A model generated the notes under the pieces. That model worked only from the letters and a program-made list of their open reading frames with translations. It ran no database searches and was not told where the DNA came from. A DNA stretch of 64,000 nt, taken from Pseudomonadota bacterium. GTDB taxonomy: Bacteria > Bdellovibrionota_G > JALEGL01 > DATDPG01. Each line of letters begins with the position of its first letter. Position 1 is the first letter of the stretch. The DNA is taken from NCBI GenBank assembly GCA_043809315.1, contig JAZDDX010000035.1, positions 31,921 through 95,920 on the forward strand. Direction: 5' to 3'. Both the position numbers and the translations under genes were made by a program. Positions 50,476 to 58,647 of this stretch are shown piece by piece.

Positions 50476-51477
50476 GTGTCCCGCACCAAACAAACGTTCA
50501 TCGATCAAGCGAAGATCTACATAAAGGCCGGGGACGGAGGGAACGGCCATGTCGGGTTTTTCCGCGCGAAGTTCATCCCCAAAGGGGGTCCCGACGGAGG
50601 GGACGGCGGCAAAGGGGGGGATGTCGTCATCGTAGGAACGCACCACAAATCGACACTCCACGATTATCAATTCAAGAAACATTATCGCGCAGGAAACGGC
50701 GAGTCCGGGGGGCGCGCCCAGCGAACGGGGGCGGACGGCGACGACATGGAACTCCCCGTCCCGCTCGGAACGATCATCCGGATGGCGGACGGCGAATCGC
50801 ATCTCGGTGAGGTGACGAAAGACGGGGAGCGACTGATCGTCGCGAAGGGGGGTCGCGGGGGACTCGGGAATCTTCGCTTCGCAACCTCCACGAACTAGGC
50901 GCCCAAGAAAGCAACGCCCGGAGCTGCCACGGAAGGGGCTTGGATCCGTTTCGAACTCCGGCTTCTGGCCGATGTGGGGATTGTCGGTCTCCCGAACGCC
51001 GGAAAATCGACCCTTCTCTCGGCCGTCTCGGAAGCGAGGCCGAAGATCGCCGACTATCCGTTTACGACGCTGGCCCCCTCTCTCGGGGTCGTTCGGACGG
51101 ATGGAAAAAGCTGGACGCTGGCCGACATGCCGGGGTTGATCGAGGGGGCGCACGAGGGGGCGGGGTTGGGGATTCAGTTCCTCCGCCATATCCAGCGGAC
51201 GCGCGTCCTTCTTTACCTCGTCGCCGCCGACCCGGACGATATCGGACGGCCGTGGAAAGATTTCCGGGCGACCCGACACGAGATCGAATGTTACGATCGT
51301 TCCTTGCGGGACCGGAAGTTCCTGGTAACGATAAACAAAAGCGATTTGGTCGAAGAATCGCGGCTCGAAAAGCTCCTCCGGCCGTTTCACGCGAAGGGGA
51401 TCGTTCCGCTGCCGATTTCGGCCAAGCAAAAAATCGGACTGAAGGAACTCCTGAATGCGCTGGCCGAAAAACTGTAG
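50476..51477 (+). pseudogene. obg: GTPase Obg/CgtA, reading frame interrupted by an in-frame TAG at 50896..50898 (TN*APKKAT where TNQAPRKAT is expected); probable sequencing error or recent nonsense mutation
   Basis: The Obg-fold N-terminal domain (ORF 50476..50898) and the GTPase domain (ORF 50974..51477; GLPNAGKST, DMPGLIEGA, NKSD) are in the same frame. A single TAG separates them where Obg proteins have a conserved CAG (Gln). Confidence 0.8.
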
Positions 51478-52140: not shown

Positions 52141-52170
52141 TTGGATCTCGGTTTTCCCGTTTGGTATAAT
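52141..52170 (+). promoter_or_regulatory. Sigma-70-like promoter (TTGGAT-N18-TATAAT) for rsfS-rlmH
   Basis: ttggat at 52141-52146, tataat at 52165-52170, 18-nt spacer. Followed by the aggagg RBS at 52184-52189. Confidence 0.4.
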
Positions 52171-52196
52171 GGAGCCATCCAACAGGAGGTGACCCC

Positions 52197-52577
52197 ATAG
52201 AACCCCGCGCCAAGGCGCTGTCCGTCGCAGAGACGGCGTCGGATCACAAAGCCATCGATCTGCGAATCCTCGAAGTTTTCCGCCACTGCGATTACGCCGA
52301 TTATTTCGTCATCATGAGCGCTTCCTCGACCCGCCACGCGAAAGCGTTGGCGGATTCGATTCTGGAAACATCGGGGAGTTCGAAGGTCCCGGAAGGGTAC
52401 CAGTTCGGAGAGTGGGTGCTCATCGATCTCGGGGATGTCGTCGTGCACATCTTCAACGAACCGCAACGGTATTACTACAACTTCGACCGCCTTTGGGGGC
52501 ATGTGCCAATTCTCGAAACGGCGGACGCTCCCCGCCGTCCGGCGGAAGACGAACGCCGCGCCGGGCACCCGATGTGA
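52197..52577 (+). CDS. rsfS: Ribosomal silencing factor RsfS (Iojap family); annotated start codon is ATA (probable ATG with G->A error)
   Basis: RsfS core (DYFVIMSASSTRHAKALAD...WVLIDLGDVVVHIF). The conserved N-terminal region (EPRAKALSVAETASDHKAIDLRIL) is in frame upstream of the first ATG (52314). The codon at the ideal distance (7 nt) from AGGAGG is ATA. Confidence 0.65.
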   Translation: MEPRAKALSVAETASDHKAIDLRILEVFRHCDYADYFVIMSASSTRHAKALADSILETSGSSKVPEGYQFGEWVLIDLGDVVVHIFNEPQRYYYNFDRLWGHVPILETADAPRRPAEDERRAGHPM

Positions 52578-53017
52578 AAATCGACATCCTTTGCGCCGGA
52601 CACAACCCCGAGCCGCACGAGGCCCGGTGGATCGCGGAGTATTGCGCGCGCGCCAAGAAATACGCACCGGTCTCGCTGACGCGCATCCGGGAACGTGATC
52701 CGAATCGGACGTGGATCGAGATCGAAAAGAAGATCCCGAAAGCCGCTTTTCGAATCGTCCTCGACGATCGCGGCGAATCTTTGTCGACGGAAGAATTCGC
52801 CCGTCTCCTGGATCGACCCGCGCGAAAAGGGAAAAAATCGCTCGCGTTCGTGATCGGTGGATCGTACGGTCTGCCGGATGGCGCCCGAGAGAGCGCGGAT
52901 GCCCGCGTCTCCCTCTCACCGTTGACCCTCCCTTACCGTCTCGCGCTTCTCGTTCTCTGCGAGCAGATATATCGTGTACTTTCCTGGCGCGCGGGAGCTC
53001 CGTACCACCATGAATGA
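52574..53017 (+). CDS. rlmH: 23S rRNA (pseudouridine1915-N3)-methyltransferase RlmH (SPOUT)
   Basis: 147 aa from GTG (VKIDILCAG...). GTGA overlap with the rsfS stop. SPOUT C-terminal motifs (FVIGGSYGL, LPYRLALLVLCEQIYR). Confidence 0.8.
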   Translation: MKIDILCAGHNPEPHEARWIAEYCARAKKYAPVSLTRIRERDPNRTWIEIEKKIPKAAFRIVLDDRGESLSTEEFARLLDRPARKGKKSLAFVIGGSYGLPDGARESADARVSLSPLTLPYRLALLVLCEQIYRVLSWRAGAPYHHE

Positions 53018-53972
53018 AAGGAAACGGATCGTTTTTCAGATTCACGGAGTTCGGATCGGGATCCGTTCCGATTCCGCGGACGCGACCGACCTCATGTGCG
53101 AGCGTCTCGCGGATTATCGTGCCGATGGGATCGAGCGATGCGAAGCGGAGATCGAGATCCAAACCAAGTCGGCACCGTTTTCTCCCGCTGGAATCCGGAA
53201 AGAATTCTCCTGGATCCGCTCCCGCCCTCTCTACGGCGATTTCGACAACGACATCCTCCGCTTGACCGACGGTCGTTCGATCTCCGTCACGCGATACGAG
53301 GAGCGGCGCGCCGAGATCTTCCTCGATCCAGAGACGCTGACCGATCCCCTCTTCACGTCCCGGACCTTCCTTCCGATGGCGCTCCTTGAACTCCTCCGCA
53401 CGTTCGGCTTTTTCTGCATCCACGGAGCACTCTGTGTCCGCGAGAAGCGAGGGATCTTGATTCTCGGGCACGGCGGAAGCGGGAAGTCGACGATCTCCGC
53501 CGCCCTGCTCCGGGAAGGGTTCAAGATCGTCGGCGACGACAACCTCCTCTTCCACTTGGGACCGGGAGGGGTGAGTCTCGGATTCCCGTTCGAGCGGGAG
53601 CTCTCTCTTTCGCCGGAGGCGCTGGCACAGTTCGACCCGCTGGCATCGATCCATCCTACGGCAAAGATCCGGATCCCGCTTCGCGTTCTCCCCTCGGACC
53701 GTGTCGCGACCAACGCGGTACCGAACGAGATCGTCTATCTGACCGGGGAGGACGAGGATGCCGGAGGACCGCTGGATCCGGCGGAGGCTTTCACGATCAT
53801 TCTGGAGGAGAACCCCCTGTTTCTCCTCTCCTCGCGCCTGGCTTCGAGTCATCTCCAGACGATCCGGACGCTGATCCGGAACGCTCGTTCCTGCAGCGTC
53901 TCTCTGAAGCATCGACACCCTCTCGACCTGGAGGAGATCGCCGCTCGCTTTCTCCGCCTCGCCAGCAGTTGA
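53010..53972 (+). CDS. HPr kinase/phosphorylase C-terminal-domain-like P-loop kinase (HprK-related kinase family)
   Basis: About 320 aa; Walker A GHGGSGKST in an HprK_C-like context (FFCIHGALCVREKRGILILGHGGSGKSTISAALLREGFKIVGDD). No HprK N-terminal domain. The ATG at 53010 overlaps the rlmH stop. Confidence 0.65.
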   Translation: MNERKRIVFQIHGVRIGIRSDSADATDLMCERLADYRADGIERCEAEIEIQTKSAPFSPAGIRKEFSWIRSRPLYGDFDNDILRLTDGRSISVTRYEERRAEIFLDPETLTDPLFTSRTFLPMALLELLRTFGFFCIHGALCVREKRGILILGHGGSGKSTISAALLREGFKIVGDDNLLFHLGPGGVSLGFPFERELSLSPEALAQFDPLASIHPTAKIRIPLRVLPSDRVATNAVPNEIVYLTGEDEDAGGPLDPAEAFTIILEENPLFLLSSRLASSHLQTIRTLIRNARSCSVSLKHRHPLDLEEIAARFLRLASS

Positions 53973-53974
53973 TC

Positions 53975-53990
53975 CGCCCTCGCGAGGGCG
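53975..53990 (+). other. Perfect 16-nt GC-rich palindrome (cgccctcg/cgagggcg) followed by tttaat, 3 nt after the kinase TGA
   Basis: Read directly from the sequence. Hairpin with a 6-7 bp GC stem. Possible weak intrinsic terminator, attenuator or recoding stimulator. Confidence 0.35.
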
Positions 53991-54005
53991 TTTAATCTCC
54001 CCCGC

Positions 54006-54185
54006 ATGACTTCGAAACTGGATGGTAAAGATCCCCGCGATCCAAAGGGAAAGAAAAAATACGTCAAGCCGGAGCTCAAGCGGATGAACGAGAAGGTCGT
54101 GAAAGCGGTCGGCTCCCCTGCGGTCCAAGGCCCCGCGGTTTCCGCACCGGCCTCACCCACCGCGCCGGGTACCAAAGTTTTTTGA
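54006..54185 (+). CDS. Unannotated 59-codon ORF: Lys-rich N-terminal half, Pro/Ala/Ser-rich C-terminal tail
   Basis: atg 54006 to tga 54185: MTSKLDGKDPRDPKGKKKYVKPELKRMNEKVVKAVGSPAVQGPAVSAPASPTAPGTKVF. Below the 60-aa ORF-track cut-off. In the same frame as the upstream kinase gene. GC3 about 65%. The stop is embedded in the inverted repeat gatgaa-N7-ttcatc (54183-54201). Confidence 0.35.
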   Translation: MTSKLDGKDPRDPKGKKKYVKPELKRMNEKVVKAVGSPAVQGPAVSAPASPTAPGTKVF

Positions 54186-54220
54186 TGAACGATTTCTTCA
54201 TCCAGGAAAAGTTAATCGGG

Positions 54221-55312
54221 TCACCAGAATAGCCATCGAAAGAGCACCGGAGCGTGCCGCCACAAAAGCCCGAACGGGCGGCGGAAACGCCACATCCGTT
54301 TCCTGACCCCAGCTGTCTGATACTCGATTTGCGCTTCTGACCCGTGAACAAGGCCCAAGAATCGCTTCATCCGACCCGGCTTCATCAACAGAAACGGCAA
54401 GGGGGATCCGGCAAAATCGATCGCGCGATCGGGCATCACCGCCAGATTCTTCCGGACCCGGCCGGTATAGAGCTGAAGTACGCGATTCTGGAGAATCGGC
54501 GGCTCCTGCACGACCTCGGGAAAGACCTCAGACGCGAGTTTCCAGGAGGGGTACGCAAGATACGTGAGGTCCGTTGCCGAAAGGCGCTCCCGGACATACT
54601 CCCACCGCGGTCGTTTCGCGCGGCACCAGACCGCGACGTCCGCCAGGTGCCGAAGGCCGTACAGAAAGTGGTGGCGCGTGGCATGAAAAAGGAGGTGCAC
54701 GAGAAACTCCTCGTCGCACCAGGGGTCCGGGAACGGATACGTACCGTACAGCGGAGGGAGCGTCGTTGCGTGGAGCTCGAGAAACAGGTCCCCTTGCTCG
54801 TACCCGATCGCGTCGATCCCCGCCACGACTGCCGCGATCGGATCCCCCGTGACCGCGACGGCGCGGGCCAGCGGGCCTCTCGGCTTGACCCGCTCGAACC
54901 CGCTCTTTTCGAGAAGCCCCGTCGCAGCCGAAACATCGGACGGGCGGACCAAGAGATCGAGATCCCGAAACGCCCGCTGGCCCGGTTTCGGGTACGCTCC
55001 ACGCGCGAGCATCACCCCTTTGAGCGTCGTGACCCAGATTCCGTGTTCACGGAAGTCGGCGCAGATCTCGTCACATCGCCGACCGTAGTGCTCCGCCCGC
55101 AATGCCGTGAGTTGCCAAAGATAACGGGCTTCATCGAGCAGCAAAGGCGCCGTTTGCGAGTTCAAGACTCCCGAGGAAAGGATCGTCGCGACCTTGTGAT
55201 CCCGGGCGAGCTTCCAAACCGACTCTTCGTGATCCTGGAGCGGCGCGACCCCGGAATCGAACCCCAGGCCGGTCCGTACAAGGGAGATGAGCCTCTTGAG
55301 ATCAGAGGACAT
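54221..55312 (-). CDS. Nucleotidyltransferase, PF14907 (NTP_transf_5, uncharacterised nucleotidyltransferase) family
   Basis: About 364 aa from MSSDLKRL...; hG[GS]...DhDhhV-type motif (RAFRDLDLLVRPSD) characteristic of this family. The upstream 130 codons of the 495-aa ORF overlap the neighbouring kinase gene and are not considered coding. Confidence 0.6.
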   Translation of the reverse strand: MSSDLKRLISLVRTGLGFDSGVAPLQDHEESVWKLARDHKVATILSSGVLNSQTAPLLLDEARYLWQLTALRAEHYGRRCDEICADFREHGIWVTTLKGVMLARGAYPKPGQRAFRDLDLLVRPSDVSAATGLLEKSGFERVKPRGPLARAVAVTGDPIAAVVAGIDAIGYEQGDLFLELHATTLPPLYGTYPFPDPWCDEEFLVHLLFHATRHHFLYGLRHLADVAVWCRAKRPRWEYVRERLSATDLTYLAYPSWKLASEVFPEVVQEPPILQNRVLQLYTGRVRKNLAVMPDRAIDFAGSPLPFLLMKPGRMKRFLGLVHGSEAQIEYQTAGVRKRMWRFRRPFGLLWRHAPVLFRWLFW

Positions 55313-55374: not shown

Positions 55375-58300
55375 TCAGCTTACGTCGATTCCGTGGAGGG
55401 AGACTTCCGGATTCGTGATCGGCTCCGGCGCCTCCTTTGGGATCCGGATCGTGAACGTCGCCCCCTTCCCCACGCCGTCCGACGCGACGGTTAGGGTTCC
55501 ACCATGCTGTCCTTCGACGATGGAGCGAACGATGTAGAGCCCCAATCCCGTTCCTTCCGTGGGAGATTTCGTTGTGAAGAACGGTCGGCAAAGATTCGGC
55601 AAGGTCTCCGGCTTGATCCCGGCCCCGTTGTCGCGGATCGACAGTTCGAACTCCGCTCCGAGATCGCGTCCTTTGACGATGATCTTTCCGGCCCCGTCGG
55701 AAGGACACGCTTCGATCGCGTTCCCGATCAAGTTGACCAGGATCTCGTGGAACGAGGCGTACCCGAGAAGTTTGACCCCCTCGGTTCCGAACAGTTCGAC
55801 GGCGACCCCCTTCAATTTGATCTTGTCGGCGTGGAGTGATTTGGCCAGTTCGATCGAGTCGGCGAGGTTGATCTCGGTTCTTTGTTTCGAACCGCTCGAA
55901 TAGGTGCGAACGGCGTCGACCAACGTCCGGATCCGTTCCATGGCACGGTCGATGACGGCGCTCGTCGCGTCCAACTTCTCCTGGAGCTTGGCGGCCTCCT
56001 CAGGGGACGCTTTCTGCATCCGGGCGATCAGGTCGGCGGCCATCGCCCGCTGAAATTTGACGTTGTTGACCAGTTGATTGATGCCGTTCCGGATCTGGTG
56101 GGCCATCCCGCCGGCCAGATACCCGAGCTCGATGACTTTTTCGTTGTTGGCGATCCACTCGGCGGTCTTGTGCGCCTCGATCTGGGCCCGTACCCGGGCC
56201 AATAAGATCTCGCGCCGGAACGGTTTGGTGACGTAGTCGTTCGCCCCTCCGCGCAGAAGCCGAGTGATCGTTTCTTCGTCGTCGTGGGAACTCAACATAA
56301 TGATCGGAAGCGCCTGAAGCTTGGGGGACTTCCTCGCCGCCTCGACCAGTTCGTCGCCGCGCATCTGCGGCATCATGATGTCGGTGACGAGGGCGTCGAA
56401 CGGCTCGCTCTTCAAGCGCTCCAGGGCCTTCTTCCCGTCCGGAGCGAAGTGGACGTTGTACTCGTCAGCCAGGGCGGTAAAGACGATCTGCGCGACCTCG
56501 GGGTTGTCCTCGGCAACGAGAAGAGTCGGTCTCCCTTCTTGGGTCTTCTCCGGGCGCTCTCTCGGGTAGGCGACGTCGAGCGTGCCGTGCAGGACGCTCT
56601 TTCGGGAAGGATCGTCGACGCTCGCCTCTGCGATGATTTCGACATCCTGGGAGAGGGGCAATGCAACGACAAACTTGGAGCCGCCGAATTCGGACTCCAC
56701 CACCGATACCTTTCCGTTGTGGAGTTCCGCCATCTCTTTGACGAACGAGAGGCCGATTCCGGAGCCGCCATGCTCCTTCAAAGAGGTCCGGCTGGACTGG
56801 TAGTACCGGTCGAAAATCTTGTCGCGTTCGGCGGGGGGAATGCCGATGCCGCTGTCGCTCACTTCGAAGTAGGCGCGCGCTGAATCGGTCCGCATCGAAA
56901 CCTTGATGATCGGGGTCGGGTGGTTTTTCCGATCGGCCGGTACGACCCGTCGGTCGGTGAATTTGATTGCGTTGGAGAGGAGGTTGTCGATGACCCGCTC
57001 GATCTTGGGCGGGTCCATGGGGATCTTTAAATTCTCGAAACCGTAGGTGTCGACTTGAAATTCGATCCCCTTTTGCGCGCAGAGCAGGCGGAACGGCTCG
57101 GCCCAGCCGGAGAGAAGTTCAGCGGGGTGGACGAGCTTCCAGTCGAGCTTGAGCGTACCCGACTCGGCCTTCAACGTGTCGAGCATCGTCGTGATCATGT
57201 CGAGCAATCGGCGTAATGACCGATCGACCGGTTTCAGCTTCTCGCCGACCAAATCCCGCATCTCGCTCGCCAGCTCCTCCACCGCCCCCAGCGCGATCGT
57301 GATCGGCGTCTTGAAATCGTGCGACACGTTCGCGAAGAAGCGCTCCTTCATCTTTTCCATTGCGCGTAATCGATCGAGCGCCATGCCGAGGTCTTTGGTG
57401 CGAGCATCGACTTGTTGCTCGACGTGGAGGAAGGCATCGCCATATTCTTTTGCGAGCGCTAATGCGGTGGCGGAAAGCATTACCGCAAAACCAAACGGGA
57501 GAAACCACGGGGGGCCGCTTGGCATAAAAGTCATCCCAACATCATGGACACTTGCCAGGAAAACCGCTGTAAACGCCAACATGTAGCGCCAAAGACCTGG
57601 CGACCGACTCCGGACCCAACCCCAAATCGCCTGTCCGTAAGCCAAGAAAAACGCGAGTAAAAAGACTGAATACCACAGCCGATAGGCTTCATAGACGCTC
57701 ATAAAACCGTTGCGGGACAGAACCACAGCGGCCGAAACGAGACTCAACCCAACAAAAGGATAAAAAAGTTTTTTTGAGATCGTTCGAGTGCGACTGAAGA
57801 AGAACCAAATAAATGTACAGGCGCTCGCAATCGCGCTGATGGCATTAAATTTCAGCACAGCCGGCAGGTCGGAGAACAAGCGATATGGGATCCCACTTAG
57901 AGAAAACTCCAGGCAACCCACGCTGAGAGAGCAGAGCGCAAAGATTCCGTTGTAGGAACGGGTGGGGACAAGAAGGTAGACAAAGAGGTAGTACAGCCCA
58001 ACAGCGATGAGCAGTAATCCGAACAAAGCGAGAAGATCCGTATCGATAAATCCGACGACGGATGCCCAAGGTTGAATTCGGCTTGCCTCGCCGATGCCAA
58101 TCGGACCGATATAGATCCCAGCCGTATCGGGGGTATCCCATTTGAATAGCTGAACCTCAATGTCAACGAATGGCTTTATGCCCTTTGGAAGACATTCCTT
58201 AGAGATTGGGTACGTTCGCAAAAGCCCCCACCACCAGCCCACTTGGGCGGAATCACCGCCCAATCCAGACCGTCCTACCTCGCAGCCATTTAGGCTTACA

Positions 58301-58647
58301 ACATCGGAGTCGCCAATTCGGCCAAGAACGATCATTGGCCTCGATAGATTTGCAAACAGGTCAGTCGGAATACTTTTCCGAAGAATCCATGTCCGGGTGC
58401 CCTTGAGGCTCGGCTCCCGAATGAAATTCGTGGGAAGCGTGAGACCCTTCTCAAGGATTTGTCCCTGTCGGTCTGTTACCGCCCAACCGGTGGCGAGATC
58501 CTGGCTTCCAACTTCCCGTTTGAGACGGTATTCACAGTAGCGATGGGCCAATATGGGGGCAAGTCCGGCGACAAAGACACACCAAAAAAGAACTTCAAGG
58601 GCAGTCGAGCGCCACCCGCGTGATCGCATGTCCTGATAGTAGGTCAA
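55375..58647 (-). CDS. Hybrid sensor histidine kinase with 7TM-DISM-type N-terminus, HisKA/HATPase, receiver and a second kinase core
   Basis: Periplasmic domain plus 7 TM helices. H-box (FFANVSHDFKTPI), HATPase (DSGIGIP...GGSGIGLS), REC (LLVAEDN...VTDIMMP), a second H-box (GGMAHQIRN) and HATPase (DNGAGI...GTGLGLYIV). Confidence 0.8.
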   Translation of the reverse strand: MTYYQDMRSRGWRSTALEVLFWCVFVAGLAPILAHRYCEYRLKREVGSQDLATGWAVTDRQGQILEKGLTLPTNFIREPSLKGTRTWILRKSIPTDLFANLSRPMIVLGRIGDSDVVSLNGCEVGRSGLGGDSAQVGWWWGLLRTYPISKECLPKGIKPFVDIEVQLFKWDTPDTAGIYIGPIGIGEASRIQPWASVVGFIDTDLLALFGLLLIAVGLYYLFVYLLVPTRSYNGIFALCSLSVGCLEFSLSGIPYRLFSDLPAVLKFNAISAIASACTFIWFFFSRTRTISKKLFYPFVGLSLVSAAVVLSRNGFMSVYEAYRLWYSVFLLAFFLAYGQAIWGWVRSRSPGLWRYMLAFTAVFLASVHDVGMTFMPSGPPWFLPFGFAVMLSATALALAKEYGDAFLHVEQQVDARTKDLGMALDRLRAMEKMKERFFANVSHDFKTPITIALGAVEELASEMRDLVGEKLKPVDRSLRRLLDMITTMLDTLKAESGTLKLDWKLVHPAELLSGWAEPFRLLCAQKGIEFQVDTYGFENLKIPMDPPKIERVIDNLLSNAIKFTDRRVVPADRKNHPTPIIKVSMRTDSARAYFEVSDSGIGIPPAERDKIFDRYYQSSRTSLKEHGGSGIGLSFVKEMAELHNGKVSVVESEFGGSKFVVALPLSQDVEIIAEASVDDPSRKSVLHGTLDVAYPRERPEKTQEGRPTLLVAEDNPEVAQIVFTALADEYNVHFAPDGKKALERLKSEPFDALVTDIMMPQMRGDELVEAARKSPKLQALPIIMLSSHDDEETITRLLRGGANDYVTKPFRREILLARVRAQIEAHKTAEWIANNEKVIELGYLAGGMAHQIRNGINQLVNNVKFQRAMAADLIARMQKASPEEAAKLQEKLDATSAVIDRAMERIRTLVDAVRTYSSGSKQRTEINLADSIELAKSLHADKIKLKGVAVELFGTEGVKLLGYASFHEILVNLIGNAIEACPSDGAGKIIVKGRDLGAEFELSIRDNGAGIKPETLPNLCRPFFTTKSPTEGTGLGLYIVRSIVEGQHGGTLTVASDGVGKGATFTIRIPKEAPEPITNPEVSLHGIDVS

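Follow-up and report, generated by a model that had tools for sequence, protein, structure and literature searches.

Evidence that a kinase gene and the small in-frame ORF behind its stop codon are two neighbouring genes of a reduced RiPP-type cassette

In a 64,000-nt stretch of a Bdellovibrionota-like metagenome-assembled genome (MAG; GenBank assembly GCA_043809315.1, contig JAZDDX010000035.1, positions 31,921 to 95,920; hereafter the window), a gene for an HprK-like kinase ends with TGA and is followed, in the same reading frame, by a GC palindrome and a 59-codon open reading frame (ORF). A first reading of the bare sequence (the original prediction) had listed three explanations for this layout, namely two cistrons separated by a terminator or attenuator, programmed stop-codon read-through, and a C-to-T or G-to-A error that split one gene. 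Our analysis indicates with high confidence that the kinase and the ORF are two independent genes of a cassette of the type that makes peptides which are synthesized ribosomally and modified post-translationally (RiPPs), that this cassette is reduced in the window by an in-frame deletion of a radical S-adenosylmethionine (SAM) gene and a PqqD gene, and that the frame is shared by coincidence. Since the orthologous kinases end at the same place, the stop codons and the frame of the small ORF vary, and no fused homologue was found, we rejected read-through, selenocysteine insertion and a split gene. As a recoding candidate the finding is ordinary, and it serves as a warning for annotation: recoding is mimicked by a stop codon that is followed by a hairpin and a small ORF in frame, where here two genes just lie side by side. 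The small ORF points to an uncharacterized, strongly conserved family of putative precursor peptides, and the cassette represents a variant, not described before, of a known type of peptide-modification system.

The kinase gene and its stop codon

The kinase gene (53,010 to 53,972, + strand) is complete and encodes 320 aa, closing with the TGA at 53,970 to 53,972 that had been noted before. Its likely start is the ATG at 53,010, which overlaps the stop of the upstream rlmH gene in the sequence ATGAATGA (53,010 to 53,017), an overlap that suggests translational coupling. The lengths first proposed for the kinase (332 aa) and for a read-through fusion (403 aa) had been counted from an upstream GTG at 52,974, and are corrected to 320 and 391 aa when counted from this ATG.

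Searches of Pfam and NCBIfam returned weak matches to HprK_rel_A, HprK_rel_B and Hpr_kinase_C over the Walker A region (GHGGSGKST), and a precomputed assignment places the protein in the ScmC family (PF27840). The profile of the kinase family matched HPr kinase crystal structures (E = 2.7e-7), and the AlphaFold2 (AF2) model (pLDDT 88.7, pTM 0.88) matched the phosphoenolpyruvate carboxykinase (PEPCK) and HprK/P folds. The scores against TIGR00679 (22 bits, cut-off 240) and PF07475 (24.7 bits, cut-off 33.3) fell short. Judged from these profiles, the kinase is a distant relative within the HprK superfamily and not HprK itself.

Few homologues of the kinase were present in a database of 5.8 billion proteins. 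The identical one is the protein V1495_09920 of the NCBI MAG, three further ones are 40–54% identical and 315–324 aa long, and none of the homologues found there has a C-terminal extension. The orthologous kinases of the related loci (designated by L numbers below) are 315–331 aa long and about 36–55% identical, and they stop within 1–2 residues of the same alignment column. Aligning them had been suggested as a check for a Lys-rich C-terminal extension; no such extension was seen in any of them. A contig scan with the kinase alignment yielded distant P-loop kinases alone (24–35% identity, mostly from Sphingomonadales) and no orthologues. In the AF2 model, the chain ends in a confident and complete C-terminal helix (residues 307–319). 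The TGA at 53,970 to 53,972 is thus the kinase's own normal stop.

The small ORF and its peptide family

The small ORF (from the ATG at 54,006 to the TGA ending at 54,185, + strand) encodes 59 aa and begins, as first described, 11 codons (33 nt) past the kinase stop in the same frame. The NCBI annotation also treats the two as separate genes (V1495_09920 for the kinase, V1495_09925 for the peptide). The peptide consists of a variable Lys-rich N-terminus, a leader K-x-Y-V-K-P-E-L-K-R-M-N that contains a YxxPxL motif, and a C-terminal part that is conserved. Searching the 5.8 billion proteins with a profile built from four peptides identified 21 database members, all of 53–70 aa, and phmmer, run in full over 1.84 billion cluster representatives, returned matches of 54–59 aa throughout. 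No protein longer than 70 aa with the peptide sequence was found in either the 5.8 billion proteins (profile) or the 1.84 billion representatives (phmmer). Since every match is short, the peptide sequence is in both scans never part of a larger protein.

The alignment of 23 sequences contains the invariant residues Y19, P22, M27, N28, G36, S50, P51, P54, V58 and F59, with L24 nearly so. Its leader consensus is KxYVKPELxRMNEK, and its near-invariant end reads G-x-P-P-V-P-G-x-P-x-x-A-Q-A-S-P-V-A-P-G-A-T-V-F-stop (family pattern ...ASPxAPGxxVF). The dN/dS ratio is 0.11–0.35 where it can be computed; elsewhere dS is saturated and the protein is conserved. On these substitution patterns, purifying selection on the peptide is evident. 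The window peptide deviates from the family at 2 of 22 conserved columns, and its decay after the loss of the radical SAM gene (see below) was rejected because this lies within the family range. No model of Pfam or NCBIfam matches the peptide, and a metagenome scan with the peptide alignment gave at least 600 pattern matches, none of which was confirmed. We regard the 59-codon ORF as a separate, conserved gene with its own ATG and, by analogy with related clusters and from the gene context in the relatives, as the gene for the putative precursor peptide of the cassette.

A pyrimidine motif (TCTCC, 53,996 to 54,000, + strand) lies 6–10 nt 5' of the peptide ATG. Spacer alignments show a counterpart (TCTCC, TCCTCC, TCTCT or TCTTT) kept before the precursor ATG in L001, L002, L003, L063, L066 and L073, in spacers that are otherwise unrelated. 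In L002 (2333–2509) and L073 (2957–3133), an intact and conserved precursor gene of 58/59 aa was missed by the source gene callers; the peptide family is probably under-annotated.

Reading frame and spacer in related loci

We compared distance, stop codon and frame across the related loci, counting from base 1 of the kinase stop codon up to base 1 of the peptide ATG. The two genes are in frame in the window (36 nt, TGA), L003 (36 nt, TGA), L063 (12 nt, TAA) and the L068 group (54 nt, TGA), and out of frame in L001 and L002 (35 nt and TGA in both), L066 (13 nt, TAA), L073 (41 nt, TAG) and one JGI contig, where kinase and peptide overlap by 4 nt. Expressed as spacers, these are -4, 9, 10, 32, 33, 38 and 51 nt, with four lineages in frame and five out. 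In L067, 5 kb separate the kinase from the peptide, in L065 the two are not adjacent, and the L070 spacer contains a second in-frame TGA. The spacer translations (SALARAFNLPR, VCGAISGILRA, SLI and PRASPLSCVFKNGKLRA) are unrelated to one another, and the spacer is not conserved as coding sequence.

The original prediction had itself named the observation that would speak against a single gene, namely orthologous loci where the kinase ends at the same place and the small ORF lies in another frame; such loci are found among the orthologues. The prior chance that two neighbouring genes share a frame is 1/3, and other ordinary neighbours in the window do so as well, such as ftsA and ftsZ, separated by a TAG (30,861). 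The shared frame of the kinase and the peptide is a coincidence.

The palindrome after the kinase stop

The palindrome cgccctcgcgagggcg (53,975 to 53,990, + strand) forms a 6-bp GC stem with a 4-nt loop and is followed by UUUAAU. The earlier description as a perfect 16-nt palindrome with a tttaat tail is correct; its offset from the TGA is 2 nt instead of 3 nt. The window contains four perfect 16-nt palindromes, compared with 2.1 ± 1.4 in Markov simulations. By itself the hairpin folds with -11.7 kcal/mol (z = -2.1), and the 35 nt past the kinase stop fold with -10.1 kcal/mol, ranking sixth among 45 gene ends. In the 81-nt context around the stop, the z score is +0.45. The palindrome, the shared frame and the fold energy do not exceed chance. 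The palindrome is absent from the orthologous spacers, and an Rfam scan of 53,600 to 54,500 returned no known RNA family. We take the palindrome to be a lineage-specific hairpin that may at most bring about partial termination or stabilize the RNA.

A stronger role is conceivable, in which the palindrome acts as an intrinsic terminator or attenuator that ends most rplU-...-rlmH-kinase transcripts, thereby determining how much precursor mRNA is made. This reading is compatible with the two-gene model, and the 6-bp GC stem, the 4-nt loop and the T-rich tail (UUUAAUCU) right after the stop codon, together with the z score of the isolated hairpin, resemble an intrinsic terminator. In contrast to such terminators, the U-tract (UUUAAU) is poor, being short and interrupted, and the element is neither conserved nor above chance: a terminator-like scan of the window found four sites, the palindrome among them, against 4.3 expected from shuffles, and of random 35-mers drawn from the window, about 20% fold equally well or better. 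Furthermore, the next gene begins only 15 nt downstream and has no promoter of its own, as no promoter-like site was found that could drive the peptide separately. The spacers of the orthologues, which all lack the hairpin, shrink to 9 nt or give way to an overlap, and the minimum-free-energy structure of the 81-nt context does not contain the hairpin. We therefore consider a main terminator role unlikely. Of the proposal that a terminator or attenuator separates two cistrons, the two cistrons stand, while the part of the hairpin is unproven, not conserved and statistically unexceptional.

A radical SAM gene remnant after the peptide

A second inverted repeat (gatgaa-N7-ttcatc) had been reported across the peptide stop. 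It is indeed present at 54,184 to 54,202, but had been misread, since it is the 5' end of a radical SAM gene. The sequence ATGAA(C/T)(G/A)A(C/T)TT(C/T)TT(C/T)AT(C/T)GG overlaps or adjoins the peptide stop in L001, L002, L003, L063, L066 and L073; it encodes MN(D/N)FFIG(L/I)ELTRHCNLRC.HCF, the start of a radical SAM protein with its CxxxCxxC motif. The gATGAA/TTCATc repeat recurs in these orthologues because it is dictated by the Met-Asn-Asp-Phe-Phe-Ile codons, and for the same reason we rejected it as a regulatory hairpin; a role of the repeat in translational coupling is conceivable.

The window retains ATGAACGATTTCTTCATC, which encodes MNDFFI (radical SAM codons 1–6) and matches the starts of the relatives' radical SAM genes, and then continues with QEKLIGSPE to a stop at 54,232. 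The result is a 15-codon remnant ORF (54,185 to 54,232, + strand) that bears the scar of a deletion. Its tail resembles the x-E-x-L-[IVL] C-terminus of PqqD and, as the PqqD genes do, extends over the 3' end of NTP_transf_5, the convergent gene. A tblastn search with radical SAM, PqqD, rhodanese and peptidase proteins found nothing in the 64-kb window, from which we conclude that about 1.3 kb with the radical SAM and PqqD genes was deleted in frame. When a radical SAM gene was sought elsewhere in the same MAG, no match had the V1495 prefix; most matches carried no names, and the window contig lies outside the positional index. The remaining cassette of kinase, precursor and nucleotidyltransferase is reduced and probably non-productive.

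The contig carries two other lesions, in obg and rsfS, and both of them, as originally stated, are real features of the sequence. The obg gene (about 50,491 to 51,474, + strand) has an in-frame TAG at 50,896 to 50,898, where the L066 orthologue has Gln (CAG to TAG). The stops of 45 coding-like ORFs in the window comprise 22 TGA (the commonest), 12 TAG and 11 TAA. Since all three end coding-like ORFs, a recoding of TAG or TGA in this genome was rejected, and since other genes of the window end normally with TAG, the TAG in obg, an essential gene, should be a nonsense lesion or consensus error and not a change of the code. The rsfS gene lacks any ATG, GTG or TTG from the upstream stop up to the Met at 52,314 (52,167 to 52,314), with homology from about 52,197; an ATA at 52,198 sits at the expected start position, 7 nt past AGGAGG, and could be an ATG-to-ATA change or a non-canonical start.

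These lesions leave room for the possibility that the deletion is an artefact of MAG assembly or consensus calling at the junction and that the real genome has a complete cassette, the contig coming from a MAG with suspect positions in obg and rsfS. We regard this as improbable. The junction is clean and in frame, and the overlap with the convergent NTP_transf_5 gene at its 3' end is kept. The rhodanese and peptidase genes are also absent, from separate places that one mis-join does not explain, and assemblers rarely drop 1.3 kb of unique sequence.

The cassette in related loci

In the relatives, the genes are arranged in the order rsfS, rlmH, (adh), (rhodanese), kinase, 59-aa ORF, radical SAM and PqqD, and the NTP_transf_5 gene, a signal-peptidase-like gene and a hybrid histidine kinase gene converge on them. 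The order of peptide, radical SAM and PqqD genes was found in L001, L003, L063, L065, L066, L067, L070, L071, L073 and one JGI contig, and the contigs of L002, L068, L069 and L072 break off early, with the beginning of a radical SAM gene directly behind the peptide in each. A radical SAM gene thus stands after the peptide in all 14 related loci that reach past the peptide, with PqqD next wherever the contig extends; the window has only the 6-codon remnant at this place.

The radical SAM protein is the most conserved component (66–72% identity, compared with 36–54% for the kinase), and its alignment (L001, L003, L063, L065, L066 and L067) has a mean column identity of 81%, above the kinase and the nucleotidyltransferase. 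Its best matches are a tungsten-cofactor radical SAM maturase, MftC, ScmE/F and PqqE, all below the curated cut-offs. The C-terminal Cys pattern (C-x13-G-x4-C-C ... C-x2-C) corresponds to a partial SPASM motif, and Pfam reported no SPASM domain in the relatives' proteins. The relatives' PqqD proteins scored best against models of the lasso-type RiPP recognition element (RRE), with 59–62 bits, just under the cut-off.

The nucleotidyltransferase-like gene (NTP_transf_5, PF14907; 54,221 to 55,312, - strand, start ATG at 55,312; Pfam E = 5e-33) encodes 363 aa, is 47–55% identical over the full length to the L001 and L003 orthologues, and is apparently intact and convergent with the peptide gene. 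L003, L063, L066 and L067 have an S24/S26 archaeal-type signal-peptidase-like gene, and the small peptidase of L003 matched archaeal-type signal peptidase I best in NCBIfam. In L003, L063 and L066, this gene lies between the NTP_transf_5 and histidine kinase genes; a tblastn search with the L003 protein showed that it is missing in the window.

Comparison with known systems and a proposed pathway

The closest described system is the linear polyphosphorylated peptide (LPP) clusters of Bacillota, in which a kinase, an uncharacterized nucleoside triphosphate (NTP) transferase and a signal peptidase I (SpI) act on a peptide with a YxxP leader (Nat Commun 2026; PMC13381572). The LPP kinase polyphosphorylates one Ser of the core, Ser3 (PMC13381572). 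The complete related loci share four of five components with these clusters (kinase, NTP transferase, RRE and SpI peptidase) as well as the YxxP leader; the window has the HprK-like kinase and the PF14907 NTP_transf_5 protein, which may correspond to LppN. There are also clear differences. First, a conserved radical SAM gene follows the precursor in the complete loci here, so that here the LPP enzyme set, itself newly described, is combined with a radical SAM enzyme. Second, no MsbA-type or other ABC exporter appears within about 6 kb in the relatives' gene tables, whereas the LPP clusters have one. Third, the LPP leader consensus is YxxPxVLxHQxIxFETxxS, of which the peptides here share YxxPx[L] alone. 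Fourth, the LPP C-termini are hypervariable, whereas the C-terminal part here is nearly invariant. At last, the LPP hosts are Bacillota and those here are Bdellovibrionota-like MAGs, and the window copy, a natural deletion variant, lacks the RRE and the peptidase (both absent from the 64 kb) and the radical SAM gene. By analogy with the LPP kinase, Ser50 is a candidate phosphorylation site.

The clusters of the lasso peptides paeninodin and pseudomycoidin use an HPr-kinase homologue and a nucleotidyltransferase as tailoring enzymes (PMC8498205). In the relatives, likewise, an HprK-like kinase, a nucleotidyltransferase, a small precursor and a PqqD RRE are encoded together; their PqqD proteins fit lasso-type RRE models best, and the YxxPxL leader is a lasso RRE motif. 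None of the related locus tables, however, has a macrolactam synthetase (C) or a B2 peptidase, and none of the 23 peptides has an Asp or Glu after Gly36 for a lasso ring, where lasso peptides have one at core position 7–9. Moreover, the paeninodin kinase phosphorylates a C-terminal Ser, whereas the peptides here end in Val-Phe.

A third likeness is with mycofactocin (MftABC), pyrroloquinoline quinone (PQQ; PqqADE) and SynChlorMet (ScmC/D/E/F), where a radical SAM enzyme and a chaperone of the PqqD family come after a short precursor. The best NCBIfam matches of the radical SAM proteins include MftC, ScmE/F and PqqE, and the kinase matches ScmC (PF27840). The scores of the orthologues remain far below the cut-offs, namely 81–88 bits for MftC (265), 73–87 for ScmE/F (400), 52–67 for PqqE (381) and 21–24 for ScmD (100). 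No other genes of those systems are present, and the window is without a radical SAM gene. A literature search for SynChlorMet and ScmC returned only unrelated matches to the acronyms. The invariant C-terminal Val-Phe recalls the Val-Tyr end of MftA.

By analogy with these systems, we propose the following pathway for the complete loci. The PqqD RRE would bind the leader at Y-x-x-P-x-L and present the radical SAM enzyme and the protease with the peptide; Y19-x-x-P22-x-L24 fits the motif [Y/W]xxPx[L/V/I/F/A] that lasso-type RREs recognize (PMC13381572). The radical SAM enzyme would modify the conserved C-terminal part, and the kinase would phosphorylate a Ser in that part, for which the invariant Ser50 is the best candidate. 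The nucleotidyltransferase-like enzyme (NTP_transf_5) may then decorate the product further, and the SpI-like peptidase would remove the leader. The A-Q-A/S-P before Ser50 resembles an A-x-A signal-peptidase site. In the window, the kinase and nucleotidyltransferase steps alone could remain.

The constant position beside ribosome-associated genes hints at a housekeeping rather than an antibiotic role. In another explanation, the 59-aa product is not a RiPP precursor but a small carrier or regulatory protein, or a scaffold for a peptide-derived cofactor, that acts with its rsfS and rlmH neighbours. The persistence of the position beside rplU-rpmA-obg-rsfS-rlmH over a wide divergence (GC roughly 45 to 62%) and the nearly invariant, not hypervariable, C-terminal part of the peptide would fit such a product. 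Against it, the linkage of a radical SAM enzyme and a PqqD RRE with YxxPxL is a hallmark of RiPP or peptide-cofactor maturation, and the precursors of cofactors such as mycofactocin and PQQ themselves count as RiPP precursors. We hold this explanation to be quite improbable and keep to two genes of a RiPP-type cassette.

Several points weigh against this preferred reading. Of the nine independent pairs of adjacent kinase and peptide genes, four are in frame, slightly more than 1/3, although this surplus lacks significance, and accidental read-through at a low level could still occur. No Shine-Dalgarno sequence precedes the peptide in the window spacer or in the aligned orthologous spacers. The precursor status and every enzymatic step derive from gene context and family analogy, and the kinase, radical SAM, PqqD and peptidase proteins all score below the curated NCBIfam cut-offs. 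The MAG has a nonsense codon in obg and lacks a start in rsfS. Because the window peptide is not detectably degenerate (2 of 22 columns), the word non-productive is our inference.

A bolder and tentative interpretation, which we do not favour, is that the peptide family and the cassette represent an undescribed class of modified peptide or peptide-derived cofactor. This class would be inherited vertically in a Bdellovibrionota-like lineage and combine LPP-type phosphorylation with radical chemistry on ...AQA/SPVAPGATVF, possibly with mycofactocin-like chemistry at the terminal Val-Phe, and the window would be its natural radical SAM/RRE knock-out, with the kinase, precursor and nucleotidyltransferase genes still intact.

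Read-through and gene splitting

One alternative explanation is programmed read-through of the UGA at 53,970, or selenocysteine insertion there, stimulated by the hairpin and giving a kinase-peptide fusion of about 391 aa. What recommends it is the GC hairpin 2 nt past the UGA with an in-frame ORF 33 nt downstream, and the fact that three other lineages are likewise in frame. The comparison with the orthologues argues strongly against it. Their kinases end at the homologous site, the hairpin occurs in none of them, L063 and L066 use TAA as the stop and L073 uses TAG, the peptide gene is out of frame or overlapping in five lineages, and translating the spacers gives unrelated sequences. Neither the 5.8 billion nor the 1.84 billion proteins include a fused homologue, no match to a selenocysteine insertion sequence (SECIS) or other Rfam family was found, and the C-terminal helix of the AF2 kinase model is complete and confident. 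A conserved in-frame UGA, a downstream structure and a C-terminal extension, which characterize UGA recoding, were not found across the orthologues. Programmed read-through is therefore extremely unlikely.

Equally implausible is a transition mutation or sequencing error that made the TGA and split one ancestral gene, since, despite the transition-type lesions of the contig in obg (CAG to TAG, 50,896) and rsfS (ATA, 52,198), the same orthologues rule it out: their kinases all end within 1–2 residues of the same column, the peptide has its own ATG in every relative, sometimes far from any kinase, and no fused homologue is found.

Neighbouring genes

Upstream of the kinase lies rlmH (52,574 to 53,017, + strand), which encodes the 23S rRNA pseudouridine1915 methyltransferase according to NCBIfam and Pfam (SPOUT_MTase) and was matched by the L066 RlmH in tblastn (52,574 to 53,014). 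In most relatives, rlmH and the kinase are separated by a rhodanese gene, before which adh_short sometimes occurs; neither L073 nor the window has a rhodanese gene there. On the other side, a hybrid sensor histidine kinase gene from the ORF list (55,375 to 58,647, - strand) lies upstream of the NTP_transf_5 gene and is syntenic in L001, L063 and L066.

The cassette keeps a constant position downstream of rplU-rpmA-obg-x-rsfS-rlmH and convergent with the hybrid histidine kinase gene in L001, L003, L063, L066, L068, L073 and one JGI contig. Such constancy, over a GC content of roughly 45 to 62% and kinases that are 36–55% identical, is unusual for a secondary-metabolite cluster. In the more distant L065 and L067, a Big_5-domain protein (about 1150–1180 aa) and an unannotated protein of 524–532 aa replace the kinase beside the precursor, and L065 has a hexapeptide-repeat transferase gene between its PqqD and NTP_transf_5 genes.

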